NCBI GenBank assembly: GCA_964427125.1 | Contig: CAYRSM010000003.1 | Coordinates: 1 to 40,324 of the forward strand | Reading direction: 5' to 3' | Source of the DNA: an uncultured archaeon | Lineage (GTDB): Archaea; Aenigmatarchaeota; Aenigmatarchaeia; CG10238-14; SCSR01 | DNA length: 40,324 nt | Shown: positions 23,764-39,262 of the stretch, piece after piece | Layout of the letters: every line of letters begins with the position of its first letter | Position numbering within the stretch: the stretch's first letter is position 1 | Made by a program: the position numbers and the translations under genes | The notes under the pieces: generated by a model | Database searches by the model: none | The model's input: only the letters and a program-made list of their open reading frames with translations | Told to the model about the DNA's origin: nothing

Positions 23764-26100
23764 TTATTGCACAGCAGGACTTACGAGCGGAATGGGGTAC
23801 GGTTCGGCTTCGGACGGCAGGTCTATCTTGTTCAGCTCCGAAAGGTCGCCCAGGCTGTTCATCTTTATCTCCTTCTGCGAGACCGTGTAAAGCACGCCGT
23901 CGATGTATAGAGACCTGGTCACGGAGTAAGGCCCGTAGTAATAGTAGCTGGTGCTGTTCGCGCCGCCAGGCGCGTGCGTTATCCTCCCCCTGAACGCGAA
24001 CCCGTTGTCCAGCGAGACGTTGAACACGTATGCGCCCTGCCACTCGTAGCCGCCGTAGAAAAACGGCTCCAGCGACTTTTGGTAGAGCATTATCGGTATC
24101 ACGAGCAGTCCCTTGTCCCTGTTGAAGAGGAACGCCTTGTGGTCCCTCAGAGCCTCCGAGTCGGTGCCCCTGTCCCCTATGGCGACCTTTGCAATCTCCT
24201 TCGGGTTTGACACATCACTGACATCGAACAGAGACAGCTTCACCCCGCCCACAGCCGTGTAGTACACTGCATTAGGCGAATGGACTTTGTCCGCGTCCAC
24301 ACTCTCGTTGACCTCCTTCCCCACGCCTATTATGTGTGTTTCGTCGTACGGGTGCAGGTAGTCGGAAAAGCCGGGTATCTTAAGCTGTCCCAGTATCTTC
24401 GGGCTTGCCGGGTCGGAAAGGTCTATCACAAAAAGCGGGTCTATGCTCTTGAATGTCACAAGGTAAGCCCTGTTGCCCATGAACCTCGCGGCGTATATGC
24501 TCTCGTCCGGGGCAATGTTCTCCAGCTTCCCTACTGTGTTCAGGCTCATGTCAAGGACGTAGACGTTGTTGGACATAGTGGGCTGATTAGCTGCCGGAGG
24601 CTCAACAGGCTTTGCCACAGTCGGCTCCACAGCCTGTCCGGACATAGGCGATGCGTTCTGACTTACAGCCCCAGCGCTTGCTGTCCGCGCTACTGTTGTT
24701 TCTGCCATCCCCACATTGCCCGGTATCGCCACTTCAATGAATGAGCTCCTTGTGGTCGTGGCTATCCTGAAATATCCGTTGCTCTCGTCCATGGAAAACT
24801 GGTTCAGCACGCTTCCCGGCACTTCTCCATGTGCCTTGTAGTCTATCGCCCCGTTGGATATCGATATCCTGTGTATCACCGTCTTCTGCATCTCCTTCTC
24901 TATCTCCGCCTGCACCTGCTCCATCTTTCCCTGAAGCGAAGTCTGGAGGCTGTTCTGCTGCTCCTCCGTCAGATTGCTAAAGTAGTCCTGGAGTATCTGT
25001 GTGATGTTGCCGAACTTCGCATACTGCGGCATCTGCGCGTTCCTCACGCCGTCTATCTCGGAAACGATGTCTGCGGGAAGGCTCGGCATCAGCGCCCTGT
25101 CGAGCAGCGTGTCCATGTAGTCGTAATAGCTTAAAGTCTTCTGGTAAGTCACGTAGATGTTCCCCTGAGAGACGTAGATGTTCTGGCTGTATCCCATCAG
25201 GATTTCCTTGCTCGTGTAGTCCTGCAGGTCATCTTTCGTGTTCACGGACATGATTGTTGTGAGTGTGTAGGAGCTGTCGGGCGCGTCAAAATAGTAGACG
25301 TCTGAGGCCTGCACAGCCTTTTCATTGCCGTTGGAGGTCACAGTGGGAAGCGTCACGTTGTCGCCCCCGTTCACATAGGAGTTGAAGATGACATACACAT
25401 AGTCGCCCACCATCCTGGAGTTCGTGTAGCTCCCGTCAATTGTAACGTTCCTTTTTAATACCGGGCTGGCCCTGTCCGAGATGTCATAAACATAGACGAA
25501 CGCCTTCGGGGGCTGGTAGACGGGCGCCGGGCATCCGGTCTCCTGCGAGCACCTTATCATGGGTCTTTCCGCAACGCCTGATTGCAGCGGGACCGGGCCT
25601 CCGTAATAAAATGAATTCTGATTGCCCATCACGACGAGCCTGTCGCCGTTCACGAACAGCCCTGCGGGGGTTCCGTTGAAGTCAAGCGTGGAGACTATCT
25701 TCGCGCCGTCCGCGGGGAACACGTCCGAAATCACCACCTTGCTGCCCACTATGTCGTAGATGTACTTGCCGTCGTTCTTCACAAAATCCGATTCGTCCAC
25801 TCCGGCCACCTGTATGTTCGTGGTGGAATAGTCCTGCGAGCCTGTCGCCGTTCCTGCGGCCTGCGGCGAGGCGGAAGGCGCGTTCTCCGTCATAGCTGCG
25901 CTCATGGTCCTCATCGCCCCTGAGGTGTAGCCCGAGTATATCGACTGCGAGCTTGCTTTCAGGAATCCCTGGAGCTCCGTGTAGGATGAAAACTTCTTTA
26001 TCTCGTCCGTTGAAGCGTGCGGAAAGGGCTGCCTGACCGCCACGTATGTCACTGCGATGGCGACAAGCAGTATGACTGAAATCGTCGAGAGCCTGTTCAT
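23764..26100 (-). CDS. Secreted beta-propeller-domain protein (Pfam Beta_propel-like)
   Basis: N-terminal anchor 'LSTISVILLVAIAVTYV'. The stretch 'IYAARFMGNRAYLVTFKSIDPLFVIDLSDPASPKILGQLKIPGFSDYLHPYDETHIIGVG' matches my recollection of the secreted beta-propeller family. Confidence 0.72.
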   Translation of the reverse strand: MNRLSTISVILLVAIAVTYVAVRQPFPHASTDEIKKFSSYTELQGFLKASSQSIYSGYTSGAMRTMSAAMTENAPSASPQAAGTATGSQDYSTTNIQVAGVDESDFVKNDGKYIYDIVGSKVVISDVFPADGAKIVSTLDFNGTPAGLFVNGDRLVVMGNQNSFYYGGPVPLQSGVAERPMIRCSQETGCPAPVYQPPKAFVYVYDISDRASPVLKRNVTIDGSYTNSRMVGDYVYVIFNSYVNGGDNVTLPTVTSNGNEKAVQASDVYYFDAPDSSYTLTTIMSVNTKDDLQDYTSKEILMGYSQNIYVSQGNIYVTYQKTLSYYDYMDTLLDRALMPSLPADIVSEIDGVRNAQMPQYAKFGNITQILQDYFSNLTEEQQNSLQTSLQGKMEQVQAEIEKEMQKTVIHRISISNGAIDYKAHGEVPGSVLNQFSMDESNGYFRIATTTRSSFIEVAIPGNVGMAETTVARTASAGAVSQNASPMSGQAVEPTVAKPVEPPAANQPTMSNNVYVLDMSLNTVGKLENIAPDESIYAARFMGNRAYLVTFKSIDPLFVIDLSDPASPKILGQLKIPGFSDYLHPYDETHIIGVGKEVNESVDADKVHSPNAVYYTAVGGVKLSLFDVSDVSNPKEIAKVAIGDRGTDSEALRDHKAFLFNRDKGLLVIPIMLYQKSLEPFFYGGYEWQGAYVFNVSLDNGFAFRGRITHAPGGANSTSYYYYGPYSVTRSLYIDGVLYTVSQKEIKMNSLGDLSELNKIDLPSEAEPYPIPLVSPAVQ

Positions 26101-26654
26101 TTGGATGCGCCCGCCTTCCTTTTCTCCACAAGATATATTACAAATGTGATTAGCGATAAGGACAGCAAAGCTATGGATGCAAGGGAAAGGAAGTCAAAGG
26201 CCACCGGTAAGGGTGCTGCCGGGGGAATCTGGCCGGAAATTGTCTTCGCCGCTTCCGAGGGTAAGCTTGCCGCCGTCTGTTGCATAGACTGAAAGCCAGG
26301 GCGCGGCGTCATGATTGACATCAGACCGGTGAAAGCGCCCGCCGCCAGGGTGAGTGCCGATGTTGACAGGATTACCACAAGCCTCTTGGTCTTGCTGGAT
26401 ACTATCCCTATGCCCCTCTCGGTCAGCGTGTAGAAGACGAACTTCTTGCCGGGCTGCTCCACCTTCTTGACAAGCCCCGCATTCTCCAGAGCCCTCAGGT
26501 GTTCGACAATCGTGGCGTCCGTCTTGTTCAGCTTCTTTCCTATGAACGATGGCATCCTTCCGCCGTCGGCCAGGACCTTGAGTATGTCCATCCTAGTGTC
26601 GGCCGAAAGCGCCTTCAGGACGTCCCTGTCAACTATGGTAACGGGCTCTTCCAT
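26097..26654 (-). CDS. ArsR-family HTH regulator fused to C-terminal transmembrane segments
   Basis: 'LKALSADTRMDILKVLADGGRMPSFIGKKLNKTDATIVEHLRALENAGLVKK' followed by two hydrophobic helices. There is an ATGA overlap with the downstream beta-propeller gene. Confidence 0.78.
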   Translation of the reverse strand: MEEPVTIVDRDVLKALSADTRMDILKVLADGGRMPSFIGKKLNKTDATIVEHLRALENAGLVKKVEQPGKKFVFYTLTERGIGIVSSKTKRLVVILSTSALTLAAGAFTGLMSIMTPRPGFQSMQQTAASLPSEAAKTISGQIPPAAPLPVAFDFLSLASIALLSLSLITFVIYLVEKRKAGASK

Positions 26655-26681: not shown

Positions 26682-27161
26682 TTAGGGGGAAGGAATTATT
26701 TCTTCCACGCCGCCAATACCGCAAACCATCGAAAATTCCCCGCTGTAGCTCTTGAAATATATCCTCGCTGCTTTGCCTTTGTGGAAAATGGGCTGGTCTT
26801 CCGCTTCTTGGCATATTTCTCCGACACATCCGCCGGGAGTCATTATCTGGAGATTTGCCGGCACGATTTTGAACGGCACTCCCTTCGTATAATTTTTGAT
26901 TGACAAATTGGTGTAAGTAAAAATGGCGTTGTTATTTCCCCGTTTGCTTTCGACATTCTCTACAATCCCATCGATTATGTAATCCGCGGTGCTGTTTATG
27001 TAGCTCCTGTTTGCACACTCCTTTGCCAGCAAGCCAGTCCCGCCAGACTGCTTTACGGTTATCTGAAAGTTTCCGGGCATTGTTTTTTGTGCGGCACCGA
27101 AGACGATTGCAGCCAGAACGGTTGTCGCGACCGCCAGCCCGACTATTGTCGTATGTTTCAA
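26682..27161 (-). CDS. Small secreted protein
   Basis: 159-aa ORF with the signal sequence 'MKHTTIVGLAVATTVLAAIVFGAAQ'. No family recognised. Confidence 0.55.
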   Translation of the reverse strand: MKHTTIVGLAVATTVLAAIVFGAAQKTMPGNFQITVKQSGGTGLLAKECANRSYINSTADYIIDGIVENVESKRGNNNAIFTYTNLSIKNYTKGVPFKIVPANLQIMTPGGCVGEICQEAEDQPIFHKGKAARIYFKSYSGEFSMVCGIGGVEEIIPSP

Positions 27162-27226
27162 AGTCTCACGCCCCCGTATTCAAGTTGAAGATTAGTCGGG
27201 TTAAAGATGTCGGTTATGTTAGGCGG

Positions 27227-27269
27227 GCGCCGAACCAAAATTTCACACATTCCAAACTCACCGGAAATG
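27227..27269 (+). repeat. Conserved 5' leader, copy B, ending in AACTCACCGGAAATG (27255-27269), 42 nt before the LAGLIDADG start codon
   Basis: See copy A at 411-456. Confidence 0.6.
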
Positions 27270-27311
27270 AACCCCCGATAGGCTTAAGAATGGCCCCTGT
27301 ATACTAGTAGT

Positions 27312-28085
27312 ATGGTCGTTTTGCTTACAAGGAAATTTTTCATTTCTACATACGAAAATAAGAAACTCGGTGTTCACTATTCTAAGAAACACGCCTATCT
27401 TTTCCCAATCCGCCCATCAACAACATTGGCTGGGATTATAGCGGACATAACGGGAGACGGTCACCTTGGTCATGGACTCATACAGTTTACAGCAAAGGAC
27501 AAGAAGGAAGTGCTCAGATTCAGGCGGGAATTCTGCAAGATTTTTCGTCACAAATGTAGCATCAGAAAATCGAGTACATTTCAAAATACTTGGGAATGTT
27601 TGGTGGGTTCAAATACGTTGCACAGGATATTCAAGCTGTTGGGTACGCCGTACGGAAATAAAACCAATACGAAGTTCACTGTGCCAGAATGGGTAAAGAA
27701 CGGTGAAGACGACATTAGGAGAAGATACCTGCAACGGCTGTTCGAATGCGAAGGGTCTGTGAGACTGCAAAGGGGCAACAGGATAGTCATCAAAATAGCA
27801 TTTTACAAAAATGAAAGGCTTCGAAATAACTTGGAGGAGTTCCTTTTGGAGATAAAATCCATGCTTCTTTCATTTGGCATCAAGACGACAAACTTGACCC
27901 GTGACGGTCTTCATCTGCGCAAGGATGGTAGCAGGAGCATAGGTCTCGCATTTGAAATACATGGCACGGCAAAGAACACGTATTCTATGGATAACTTCTA
28001 CAAGAAGGTCAACTTCGAGAGTTCTATAAAAAGAGAAAAACTCAAAATGTATTTAAGCGGATTGAAGAAGGCCCCATTAAGCTGA
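27312..28085 (+). CDS. Free-standing LAGLIDADG (double-motif) endonuclease-like protein, paralogue of ORF 500..1483
   Basis: 'LAGIIADITGDGHLG' and 'YLQRLFECEGSV'. Shares 'VPEWVKNGEDDI' and 'FESSIKREKL' with ORF 500..1483. AT-rich. The stop codon lies 1 nt before the tRNA-Arg 5' end. Confidence 0.8.
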   Translation: MVVLLTRKFFISTYENKKLGVHYSKKHAYLFPIRPSTTLAGIIADITGDGHLGHGLIQFTAKDKKEVLRFRREFCKIFRHKCSIRKSSTFQNTWECLVGSNTLHRIFKLLGTPYGNKTNTKFTVPEWVKNGEDDIRRRYLQRLFECEGSVRLQRGNRIVIKIAFYKNERLRNNLEEFLLEIKSMLLSFGIKTTNLTRDGLHLRKDGSRSIGLAFEIHGTAKNTYSMDNFYKKVNFESSIKREKLKMYLSGLKKAPLS

Positions 28086-28096
28086 CGCCCCATTAA
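28071..28096 (+). repeat. 10-nt direct repeat GCCCCATTAA (28071-28080 and 28087-28096), separated by 6 nt. The second copy is the 5' acceptor strand plus positions 8-9 of tRNA-Arg; the first lies inside the end of the LAGLIDADG CDS.
   Basis: Read directly: 'aagGCCCCATTAAgctgacGCCCCATTAAaag'. Confidence 0.85.
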
Positions 28097-28174
28097 AAGT
28101 TTGGGAAAGCTCAGTTTGGATAGAGCAGCACCCTTCTAAGGTGACGGTCGTGGGTTCAAATCCCTCATGGGGCA
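28087..28174 (+). tRNA. tRNA-Arg (anticodon UCU, 28135-28137) carrying a 13-nt insertion between the acceptor/8-9 region and the D-stem (about 28096-28108)
   Basis: Hand fold. Acceptor GCCCCAT/ATGGGGC pairs perfectly over 7 bp. D-arm is GCTC-AGTTTGGATA-GAGC. Anticodon arm is GCACC-CTTCTAA-GGTGA with a G27/A43 mismatch. Variable loop is CGGTC. T-arm is GTGGG-TTCAAAT-CCCTC with one U-U mismatch. Discriminator is A. The total is 88 nt, against 75 nt without the insertion. Confidence 0.75.
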
Positions 28175-28258
28175 TCCAAACGAGTCACTAATTTTTATGT
28201 TACTAACTAACATAAATTTTATATAGTTACTTACACAAACACGAGCAAGCTTATTTAT

Positions 28259-29215
28259 TTGCAATACAAAATTAAACTGGTGAAATTATGGCACGGCTTT
28301 TTCGACTTACAAAACCAAGAATTAATCAAAGCAGAAGAGAAACCCTTTTCTGACGAAGTAACTGAGATGGAGACTTTCATAAAGAAGAATGCTCGCGTTT
28401 TAGGCGACATTTTCATTTTTGGTGAACAAACAGCATCGTCTGAGCGTGACAAAAGAGTTGATCTTCTTGCGGTAAATAGGGATGGTGAAATTCTAATAAT
28501 CGAGCTTAAGAAGGACCAAGCATCAACTGATATAATCACACAAGTTTTGAAGTACAAAGCATATTGGAAGACTCATCCAGATTCAGCACGAAGTATTTGG
28601 GAACAGGCAAAGGGCAGACCTGAGGATATAGAACCTGATTGGAGCAATTACAACCCAAAAATTGTCATTGTTGCACCATCTTTTGATAGCGAGTTAATTC
28701 AAACCTCGACTCAGAACAATCTTGATATTCGTTTTGTAGAAATTACGAGATATGTGCATGGCGACTCGATGTTTGTTGTTGTTGATGAACTAGAGCCGTC
28801 AATAACAAGAGAAGCAGTGATTTCCACAAGACTCGAATATGATTGGGATTGGTATAATAAAGAGGTCGTTCGTAGCGAAGACCAGGTCAAGATTGGCAAG
28901 TACCTTCAAGAGGAAATTTTAAAGTTGTGTCAGGGGAAAGGATGGAATATCTCACCTAAATTCAATAAATTTTATTTGGCTTTCAAGTATGGTGGCAATA
29001 ATCCGTTTTGGATAGAATTTTATCATAAAGGAAAAGTGGCTGTGTGCGTCAATCTTAGGGATCAGAAAATACGTCCGCCATCAAGTTCTAACGTTCAATG
29101 GCAATGGAACAAAACTTGGGAACATTGGTATGTAGATGTTGACACCGCATCATTTGATGTGAATGACATCGAGGCTTCATTAGAATTGGCGTACAATAAT
29201 ACCATGAGGGCATAA
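28259..29215 (+). CDS. PD-(D/E)xK nuclease-like protein (NucS/DUF91/RecB-like core) with an uncharacterised ~200-aa C-terminal region
   Basis: 'RVDLLAVNRDGEILIIELKKDQASTDIITQVLKY' gives the D...E-x-K plus QxxxY arrangement. The start is a TTG at 28259, with an in-frame GTG at 28280 as an alternative. AT-rich. Confidence 0.6.
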   Translation: MQYKIKLVKLWHGFFDLQNQELIKAEEKPFSDEVTEMETFIKKNARVLGDIFIFGEQTASSERDKRVDLLAVNRDGEILIIELKKDQASTDIITQVLKYKAYWKTHPDSARSIWEQAKGRPEDIEPDWSNYNPKIVIVAPSFDSELIQTSTQNNLDIRFVEITRYVHGDSMFVVVDELEPSITREAVISTRLEYDWDWYNKEVVRSEDQVKIGKYLQEEILKLCQGKGWNISPKFNKFYLAFKYGGNNPFWIEFYHKGKVAVCVNLRDQKIRPPSSSNVQWQWNKTWEHWYVDVDTASFDVNDIEASLELAYNNTMRA

Positions 29216-38637: not shown

Positions 38638-39155
38638 TTCTATTAAAGAGCTACGTTGTGCCGGAAAGTCTTAGGGGCAAGTTCAAGGAGACCCACGGGA
38701 AGATTGTCAGGTCCTATTCTGAAATCGACTATGACTACAAGAAACTCATAACCATAGGCGACTTTGTCTCCTACAAGGCGATAACCAGCGGTGTGAACCC
38801 CGACATGCTGGTATATGACGGCAAAACAAAGAGGTCGGAAAAGGATTCTGTTAGGAAGAAGGCCCTGGATGAGTATAAGATGGATTCCACAGTCATCATA
38901 AGGAACGACCCTGGCACCATATCAGAGGAGGCGATGGAATTTTTCAAGAACTACAAGTTCGACATGAGGGTCAAGGTTTTTGTGAAGGGCGAGGAGGACA
39001 TGCTAAGCGTGCTTGCCGTGCTTTACGCGCCGATAGGAAGCATGGTGGTCTACGGCATACCAGACATTGGCATGACCTGCGTGAAGGTGGACGATGACAT
39101 AAAGGAAAAGGCTAGGCTTTTGTTAAACAATTTGGTTTTGGAAGAGGGCCTGTAG
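38634..39155 (+). CDS. DUF359-family protein (archaeal GTP-dependent dephospho-CoA kinase family)
   Basis: '[16 protein letters not shown]', '[30 protein letters not shown]' and '[26 protein letters not shown]' fit my recollection of COG1909/DUF359. The GTG start overlaps the L37e stop (GTGA). The tracked start at 38514 is an in-frame extension across L37e and was rejected. Confidence 0.65.
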
Positions 39156-39262
39156 CTCAGCATGGTTAGAGCAGCTCGCTTTTAGCGTTTGCGAAAAAGC
39201 TTGGATTCCAAGATGACAGGAAGAGACGAGACGGTCCTGGGTTCAAATCCCAGCTGGCCCAA
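39147..39262 (+). tRNA. tRNA-Lys (anticodon UUU, 39182-39184) with a 41-nt intron at the canonical 37/38 position (39186-39226)
   Basis: Hand fold. Acceptor is GGGCCTG/CTGGCCC with one U-U mismatch. D-arm is GCTC-AGCATGGTTA-GAGC. Anticodon stem is GCTCG...CGAGA, with loop CTTTTA, then the intron, then A. Variable loop is CGGTC. T-arm is CTGGG-TTCAAAT-CCCAG. Discriminator is A. The 5' end overlaps the last 9 nt of the preceding CDS. Confidence 0.8.

Follow-up and report, generated by a model that had tools for sequence, protein, structure and literature searches.

Non-canonical introns of archaeal tRNA genes, which are defined by a bulge–helix–bulge (BHB) motif of either the strict hBHBh′ or the relaxed HBh′/hBH type, are described at positions ranging from 3/4 to 59/60 of the tRNA, and they occur in the Thermoproteales, the Nanoarchaeota and other DPANN lineages (Marck & Grosjean 2003; Sugahara et al. 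2008; summarized in PMC4090602 and PMC5829648). Heavy tRNA disruption is established in DPANN lineages (PMC4090602, PMC4033280, PMC5829648), and several of these lineages combine loop-bearing EndA splicing endonucleases with raised tRNA disruption (PMC5829648). Split tRNA genes are known from Nanoarchaeum equitans and Caldivirga maquilingensis (Randau et al. 2005; Fujishima et al. 2009; summarized in PMC4090602 and PMC4033280), and circularly permuted tRNA genes from Cyanidioschyzon merolae and Thermofilum pendens (PMC3978253, PMC3218864). Here, we report an analysis of the tRNA-Arg(UCU) gene at positions 28087–28174 of a 40 324 nt stretch of DNA (the window) from an uncultured archaeon of the Aenigmatarchaeota (GenBank assembly GCA_964427125.1, contig CAYRSM010000003.1). 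The first 8 nt of this tRNA are separated from the remainder by a 13 nt insert at position 8/9, and its 5′ leader, which overlaps the end of a LAGLIDADG gene (27312–28085, forward strand), carries a copy of the 5′ strand of the acceptor stem, termed element U. Our favoured reading, to which we assign a probability of roughly 0.6 as a whole, is that the insert is a spliced intron and that the leader copy is a mimic of the acceptor strand which aids splicing.

The intron itself is a further case of the known archaeal BHB type. As in other non-canonical introns, it is short, of the protein-spliced kind, located away from the anticodon and marked by a 4 bp exon–intron helix, with a 3 nt bulge at the 3′ site and a relaxed 5′ side; it is likewise missed by standard tRNA finders and belongs to a DPANN lineage. 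It differs from the introns in the cited reviews in its position, 8/9, which is absent from their lists, in the length of exon 1, which is only 8 nt, and in the predicted role of the 5′ leader, which would supply both an extension of the outer helix and a partner for the orphaned 3′ acceptor strand. In split tRNAs, a leader or trailer outside the mature tRNA similarly pairs, holds the pieces together, builds a relaxed BHB and is then discarded; however, there two non-tRNA extensions pair with each other, whereas here a single transcript contains all parts in cis, and the clamp, which repeats the 5′ strand of the tRNA itself, would pair with segments of the mature tRNA. In permuted tRNAs, the leader and the trailer pair to make the BHB, and endonuclease and ligase must act before the acceptor stem is complete, much as proposed here, but the gene order of the present tRNA is normal and no circular intermediate is required. 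Its exons are collinear and contiguous on one strand, and it is thus neither a split nor a permuted gene. The literature searched did not yield any account of a leader that copies the acceptor strand in cis, an absence which is not proof of novelty.

The cloverleaf can be drawn as follows. GCCCCAT (28087–28093) and ATGGGGC (28167–28173) form a perfect 7 bp acceptor stem, followed by the discriminator base A28174, with the CCA not encoded. The D arm (28109–28126) is closed by GCTC (28109–28112) pairing with GAGC (28123–28126), the anticodon arm GCACC/CTTCTAA/GGTGA occupies 28128–28144 with the anticodon TCT at 28135–28137, and the variable loop (28145–28149) leads to the T arm GTGGG/TTCAAAT/CCCTC (28150–28166). 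The perfect acceptor stem and the standard arms, together with the 13 surplus nucleotides between tRNA nucleotide 8 and the D stem, had been pointed out in an earlier sequence-only reading of the window and are present as it described them. Its placement of the insert between nucleotide 8 and the D stem also holds, but not its borders: a run of A's makes them ambiguous, and the BHB geometry places the intron at 28095–28107 rather than at 28096–28108. The gene therefore consists of exon 1 (nucleotides 1–8, GCCCCATT, 28087–28094), the intron (AAAAGTTTGGGAA, 28095–28107) and exon 2 (nucleotides 9–73, 28108–28174), all on the forward strand. The Rfam tRNA model (RF00005) gives a local match only to 28108–28166, covering model positions 9–63, with 36.7 bits against a gathering score of 29. 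With default, intron and lowered-threshold settings, the output of ARAGORN for the unspliced gene was either empty or a spurious tRNA-Ser containing a false intron. When 28087–28094 was joined to 28108–28174, the same program called tRNA-Arg(tct), a call which appears only once the insert has been removed. The mature tRNA, comprising the 8 nt exon 1 and the 67 nt exon 2, would be 75 nt in length, with the junction ...GCCCCAU-U8-A9-GCUC... and a cloverleaf energy of −27.8 kcal/mol. AGA and AGG together make up 77% of the arginine codons in the six window genes counted, and tRNA-Arg(UCU) is therefore needed.

The runs that hold the window are DNA only, from a mine-drainage metagenome. A Logan contig from run X2, which is independent but probably from the same sample, is identical to the window over 27900–28172 without a single difference, and the repeat and the insert are thus not artefacts of the present assembly. 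The Logan contigs of runs X1 and X2 break off at the repeated or complementary 7-mers, one in the upstream copy (28074) and one in the 3′ acceptor strand (28172), which may reflect strain variation or a branch in the assembly graph.

The BHB layout was calibrated on the tRNA-Lys(UUU) gene of the same window (39146–39261), which contains a 41 nt intron (39186–39226) at the canonical position. In this tRNA-Lys, exon nucleotides 32–35 pair with intron positions −6 to −3, the 5′ bulge is made up of two exon bases and one intron base, and the 3′ bulge is made up of the last two intron bases and nucleotide 38. (This gene is also missed by ARAGORN with default settings, and with the option -i it is labelled 'tRNA-Stop(tta)'.) The register of the 8/9 intron of tRNA-Arg is identical. 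Nucleotides 3–6, C89–A92 (CCCA, 28089–28092), pair with T102–G105 (TGGG, 28102–28105) to form the central helix H, and nucleotides 1–2 pair with G10–C11 to form the outer helix h (G87–C110 and C88–G109), which is paired in 15 of 15 sequences. Nucleotides 7–8 of exon 1 provide the initial two bases of the 5′ bulge or loop, placing the 5′ splice site at T93 T94 | A95, and the intron then runs through this A, a 6 nt loop, the TGGG strand and the AA of the 3′ bulge, A106 A107 | A108. The loop around the 5′ site is closed by one A–T pair at most, and the 3′ bulge is AAA in all loci except for ATA in one (L010). Because the inner helix amounts to no more than one A–T pair, the motif is of the relaxed hBH type and not the strict hBHBh′ type. 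The sequence-only reading had proposed looking for a BHB or relaxed hBH motif around the insert, and it had noticed that the TGGG of the insert can pair with the CCCA of the acceptor strand; the relaxed motif was found, and this pairing is its central helix.

Relatives of the locus were sought through LAGLIDADG homologues in a protein collection, in species-representative genomes and by a DNA-pattern scan of metagenome contigs. After the removal of duplicates (for example, L021 is the same as L029), 19 distinct orthologous loci with the 8/9 intron were counted, one of which is in a metagenome-assembled genome of Ca. Aenigmatarchaeota (L010), while the others are metagenome contigs. The protein collection yielded six homologues of the LAGLIDADG protein with 49–63% identity, and a tRNA-Arg gene lies directly downstream of each one whose contig extends that far; among the LAGLIDADG-linked tRNA-Arg genes, only those of L003/L004 are without the 8/9 disruption. 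In L001, L002 and L005 the Rfam match is again restricted to model positions 9–63. The intron ranges from 11 to 41 nt in length, but the 4 bp helix H is kept in all 19 loci, as CCCA/TGGG, CCCG/CGGG, CCTC/GAGG, CCCC/GGGG or CCTT/GRGG. Across 15 distinct sequences, pairing in H and h is complete (100% of cells) and two of the four H pairs are changed on both sides; none of 500 shuffles reached the observed score, and controls in which the strands were slid were 19–56% paired. The reading of the 13 nt as a non-canonical archaeal intron, made from the window by itself, is thus the best one after comparison.

The body of the tRNA is conserved in the same manner. The anticodon-stem pairs 29:41 and 30:40 are changed on both sides in relatives and compensatory changes also occur in the T stem, with UCU as the anticodon of the orthologues, apart from CCU in L001, L023 and apparently (by eye) L016. 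The tRNA-Arg of the window contains two mismatches, G27/A43 and U50/U64. The former is also present in the tRNA-Lys of the window and in tRNA-Arg orthologues, and the latter is common to five loci whose neighbouring proteins are just 58–63% identical; since they are found in another tRNA or in relatives, the two mismatches are taken as traits of the lineage. Taken together, these comparisons make it very probable that 28087–28174, from a DPANN archaeon of the Aenigmatarchaeota type, encodes a functional tRNA-Arg(UCU) whose 8/9 intron is spliced. One or two extra introns are found in the tRNA-Arg genes of L007/L008/L009/L013, L031, L018, L025, L027, L023 and L010 (bodies of 99–119 nt), so that the number of introns ranges from one to three among the lineages, and several of the canonical-position introns in relatives contain GGATGA and TTTGA strings, which might be C/D-box-like. 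No further 5′-disrupted tRNA was found in 127 kb of related loci.

Element U (GCCCCAT, 28071–28077) is the first part of a 10 nt direct repeat, GCCCCATTAA, located at 28071–28080 and again at 28087–28096, with the copies 16 nt apart. The last five codons of the LAGLIDADG open reading frame (ORF) with its stop (GCC CCA TTA AGC TGA) overlap the tRNA leader, and the repetition of the first 10 nt of the tRNA in these codons, already noted from the sequence, is unchanged in the X2 Logan contig. As a feature of the window alone the repeat is within chance, as 41 of 100 shuffles gave three or more near-matches, and it is judged to be real because it is conserved and covaries in relatives. In the first three relatives, U lies 16 nt upstream and has changed along with the acceptor stem (GCCCCAT, GCCCCGG and GCCCCGT). 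Overall, 12 of the 19 loci have a U, located 16, 15 or 10 nt upstream, that is complementary at 7/7 positions to the 3′ acceptor strand, its predicted partner, which in the window lies at 28167–28173. These 12 loci span seven acceptor haplotypes, including GTCCTCG in L023, where T2 is found in both U and the true 5′ strand and faces A71. In 11 distinct sequences the helix between U and the 3′ strand is 100% paired, with four of its seven pairs changed on both sides.

The loci in which the two copies differ are of particular value. In L014, L018, L019 and L023, U and the true 5′ strand differ by one or two bases, and U is still 7/7 paired with the 3′ strand. In the last three, U (C5) fits the 3′ strand better, whereas the true strand (T5) is Watson–Crick paired with an A of the intron; U mismatches the intron strand, and the central helix is not possible with it. 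This division is the arrangement expected if the precursor folds with U on the 3′ strand and the 5′ strand on the intron. The base that follows U is A, G or C in L014, L018, L019, L023, L025 and L031, and U thus mimics nucleotides 1–7 only and is not a spare exon ending in U8. U is also present in L018 and L025, neither of which has the LAGLIDADG gene, and the ORF of L005 runs through U in another frame; its presence is therefore not accounted for by protein coding. Among 11 ordinary tRNAs in the same loci, upstream complementarity to the 3′ acceptor strand never exceeded 5/7, and U is absent from L003/L004, where the LAGLIDADG-linked tRNA has no 8/9 intron. We consider it probable that U is a selected RNA element which pairs with the 3′ acceptor strand.

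The remainder of the leader may contribute a second pairing. The spacer between the two copies, TAAGCTGA (28078–28085, forward strand), is complementary to nucleotides 12–18 of the D arm (TCAGTTTG, 28111–28118), and the two would lengthen helix h by nine contiguous pairs in a fixed register, with C28086 bulged, as seen in the minimum free energy fold. An AAGCTGA-type core also occurs in the leaders of relatives, with or without the ORF, and on the strength of this conservation the leader–D-arm pairing of the window is a possible extension of helix h. L021, L026 and L028, which are without U, have a leader whose reverse complement matches the D arm and the first part of the anticodon stem almost perfectly, and 10–19 leader positions are paired with the D arm (RNAduplex z of −5 to −7). 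As the loci without U mostly have such an anti-D leader clamp, the two kinds of leader can be considered as two solutions to one task. L015, L016 and L030 have the 8/9 intron, no acceptor-strand copy and shorter anti-D stretches.

Folding models agree with a role of the leader. In ViennaRNA, the window precursor without its leader forms the normal acceptor stem and the probability of helix H is close to 0, whereas with the leader the probability is 0.95 for H and 0.73 for the pairing of U with the 3′ strand. An unconstrained RNAalifold consensus of six single-intron precursors also contains the helix between U and the 3′ strand, the leader–D-arm pairing, h, and H with its AAA bulge. With regard to transcription, two TATA-like boxes lie inside the end of the ORF on the forward strand: CTCAAAAT at 28041–28048, which is at −30 to −23 from U and is matched by TTAAAA in relatives, and TATTTAAG at 28050–28057, which is the second box and the strongest in the window. 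When the upstream regions are aligned on U, such boxes are found about 30–22 nt to its 5′ side in most loci, including the ORF-less L025, and they are possible promoters of the tRNA. The first terminator-like signal past the LAGLIDADG stop codon is a T5 run at 28192–28196, downstream of the tRNA, and the LAGLIDADG mRNA should therefore read through the tRNA.

On this basis, the following course of events can be proposed. The primary transcript would include U, whether it begins close to U or arises by read-through from the LAGLIDADG gene. Before splicing, the two true strands of the acceptor stem would not be paired with each other; U would take the 3′ strand and form a stand-in acceptor stem, and the true 5′ strand would be free to build the BHB, with nucleotides 3–6 pairing with the TGGG of the intron (H), nucleotides 1–2 pairing with G10–C11 (h), and the leader spacer perhaps lengthening h through nucleotides 12–18 of the D arm. 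U would in this way stop the very stable real acceptor stem from outcompeting the weak BHB helix, and would preserve a tRNA-like top half during processing. The archaeal splicing endonuclease is then expected to cut the relaxed hBH motif after U8, in the small loop or bulge of the 5′ site, and before A9, in the 3 nt AAA bulge of the 3′ site, while the leader and the 8 nt exon 1 would remain tethered to the body through U, or through the anti-D strand, from cleavage to ligation. Ligation of the RtcB type would yield a standard 75 nt tRNA, after which the true 5′ strand would displace U in the acceptor stem and RNase P would trim the leader, presumably in this order. A specific tether or chaperone role of U is a tentative part of this scheme.

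Several points weigh against this reading. The intron is kept without a good U in seven of the 19 loci, and U is thus not essential. Wherever U departs from the 5′ strand, the change is a C/T transition facing a G, and in such cases drift alone would preserve pairing about half of the time. The loci are related, and the covariation counts overstate the independent events, which are estimated at about six, while the 11–12 U-type loci were selected for having U. The leader–D-arm pairing of the window is no better than that of shuffled leaders (RNAduplex z = −0.2). In a nearest-neighbour secondary-structure model U outcompetes the true 5′ strand even after splicing, so the hand-over to RNase P is an assumption. 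The strongest TATA-like box, TATTTAAG, would start the RNA near 28079–28081, downstream of U, and U would then be contained only in read-through transcripts of the LAGLIDADG gene. Finally, no RNA runs were listed by the run searches with the window, L027 and L025.

One rival explanation of the upstream copy accepts the intron as real. The copy could be a by-product at the DNA level, a short duplication whose likeness to the tRNA 5′ end is maintained by repeated gene conversion, slippage or shared descent, and which is trimmed together with the leader without any role in the RNA. The identity of 10–11 nt in the window, L005 and L027, which exceeds the 7 nt that pairing needs, would be natural for such an origin, as would the seven loci without the copy and the restriction of the differences to transitions. 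However, every difference between U and the 5′ strand preserves the pairing with the 3′ strand, and where the strands have diverged the 3′ strand is matched better by U and the intron better by the true strand, a pattern that speaks for the RNA mimic. Furthermore, U stays at its fixed distance despite neighbour-protein identities of 44–63% and also in ORF-less loci, none of the 11 control tRNAs has a copy, and we know of no efficient process of gene conversion between 7 nt tracts that are 10–16 nt apart. We therefore regard the by-product explanation as unlikely. The related suggestion from the sequence that the repeat is a scar of insertion or recombination was not borne out, as the copies flank nothing and U is found at a fixed distance in 12 of the 19 loci, two of which are without the LAGLIDADG gene. 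The same early suggestion offered the upstream copy as an alternative 5′ exon, such that either copy serves as exon 1, with the intron TGGG pairing with the upstream CCCA and a 29 nt intron being removed to give the same mature tRNA. In the window this can be drawn easily, since the upstream copy, GCCCCATT|A (28071–28079), is identical through U8 and, by eye, H can be accompanied by a 4 bp inner helix (A80–T101, G81–T100, C82–G99 and T83–A98); nucleotides 3–6 of U are paired with the intron strand in 93% of cells. The comparison leaves this with very little probability: U8 is missing after U in six loci, nucleotides 3–6 of U mismatch the intron strand in L018, L019 and L023, the inner helix is unconserved in L001, L002 and L005, and the ensemble model gives the helix a probability of 0.00 in all 12 loci. 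Slightly less credible still is the view that the gene is a pseudo-tRNA, or that its mature product keeps the 13 nt and so has an expanded junction of the acceptor and D stems. The mismatches U50–U64 and G27–A43 do exist, as the sequence-only reading had warned, and the unspliced gene is not recognized by ARAGORN and is matched by Rfam only locally. However, both mismatches are shared within the lineage, the anticodon and T stems of the gene, which is kept in 19 distinct loci, show compensatory changes, and the insert varies from 11 to 41 nt against conserved exons with the BHB register always kept. A tRNA that retained an insert at 8/9 would lose the U8–A14 and A9 contacts of its core.

A different kind of explanation concerns the LAGLIDADG gene. 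Free-standing endonuclease genes beside intron-bearing targets are known in T-even phages, where the phenomenon is termed 'collaborative homing'. By analogy, the enzyme could cut alleles without the intron or without the copy, and the intron or the duplicate would shield the copy of the host; such a homing unit is compatible with the intron being spliced. What the two have in common is a free-standing endonuclease gene directly beside a gene with a small intron that could break up the target of the enzyme, whereas the differences are that the enzyme is of the LAGLIDADG type on an archaeal chromosome, that the intron is a 13 nt BHB intron and not group I, and that gene and intron are independent of each other. 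The gene encodes a free-standing double-motif protein of 257 amino acids (Pfam LAGLIDADG_3, E = 2.6e-8), the best NCBIfam match of which is the endonuclease domain of an RtcB intein; in the family alignment the acidic residues of both catalytic motifs, D45/D49 in LAGxxADxTGDG and E147 in LFxCEGS, are invariant. It is thus apparently an intact, conserved enzyme akin to intein endonuclease domains, and a sequence search of the PDB with the family profile gave no hit. The gene is immediately upstream of the tRNA in 11 distinct intron loci (homologues of 44–63% identity in the ten others than the window) and in L003/L004, and it is lacking from the similar neighbourhoods of L018 and L025, as well as from L021, L026, L028 and L015, which share synteny on the LeuRS side; this pattern of presence and absence is typical of mobile endonuclease genes. 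On the other hand, L003/L004 have the gene beside a tRNA that has neither the 8/9 intron nor U, and L018, L025, L021 and others have the intron, two of them with U, but not the gene. The divergence of the protein also parallels that of the tRNA locus, which suggests long vertical co-residence over recent homing. Since gene and intron occur independently in relatives, a homing link to the tRNA locus is possible but unsupported, and as an explanation of the intron and the copy it is improbable. A comparison of loci with and without the gene had been proposed from the sequence, and it shows that gene and intron do not depend on each other and that intron and U also occur together without the gene.

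With regard to the surroundings of the tRNA, the beta-propeller-domain protein and ArsR-type membrane regulator encoded at 23764–26654 also adjoin the tRNA in L018 and L025. As these neighbours are conserved there, the LAGLIDADG gene and a preceding ORF of 159 amino acids (26682–27161) look like an insertion/deletion polymorphism. Directly downstream of the tRNA, at 28259–29215, lies a gene for a 318-residue protein with a weak, sub-threshold match to the C-terminal nuclease domain of NucS, which is of the PD-(D/E)xK type; it is missing at the corresponding position in the relatives inspected. AGA codons are frequent in the two genes that flank this tRNA-Arg(UCU), by which AGA is read, with six in the LAGLIDADG gene and five in the NucS-like gene, and rare in the four core genes counted (0–2 per gene), in which AGG dominates. 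A second LAGLIDADG-type ORF of 327 amino acids (500–1483) shows 28% identity to the first over 257 amino acids (tblastn, E = 1e-18) and has a proteasome-alpha-like gene, and no tRNA, directly downstream. Within the LAGLIDADG ORF upstream of the tRNA, an exact 12 nt copy of part of the T arm (GTGGGTTCAAAT) is present at 27603–27614 and an inverted copy of AAGGTGACGGTC, matching at 11 of 12 positions, at 27456–27467. These were considered as remnants of a second tRNA, but an Rfam E-value search of 27200–28400 revealed none, and the 12-mers are probably due to chance.

In conclusion, this study describes a tRNA-Arg(UCU) whose intron mainly improves annotation, as an essential-looking tRNA gene is invisible to ARAGORN and only partly recovered by Rfam in a lineage for which incomplete tRNA sets are a recognized problem (PMC5829648). 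What is new here is the leader. An intron beside the acceptor stem creates a folding conflict between a strong, GC-rich 7 bp stem and a weak 4 bp BHB helix, and it creates a problem of handling, in that an 8 nt exon could be lost after cleavage. Judging from the sequences, both difficulties seem to be overcome in these genomes by a leader-borne copy of the acceptor strand or, in sister lineages, by a 10–19 nt anti-D-arm strand. It is conceivable, although we hold it with less than even confidence, that DPANN archaea possess a previously undescribed class of cis pre-tRNA leaders in which an acceptor-strand mimic is at times accompanied by an anti-D-arm strand or gives way to it. If true, such leaders would allow introns close to the 5′ end to fold as a BHB and would tether an exon 1 of a few nucleotides, splicing must come before 5′ maturation in these tRNAs, and a leader element would be expected wherever exon 1 is tiny. 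If confirmed, the arrangement would provide a testable rule for archaeal introns at extreme 5′ positions and a mechanistic link between cis-spliced genes and split tRNAs, and an upstream copy of the acceptor strand would serve as a search signature for hidden disrupted tRNA genes.

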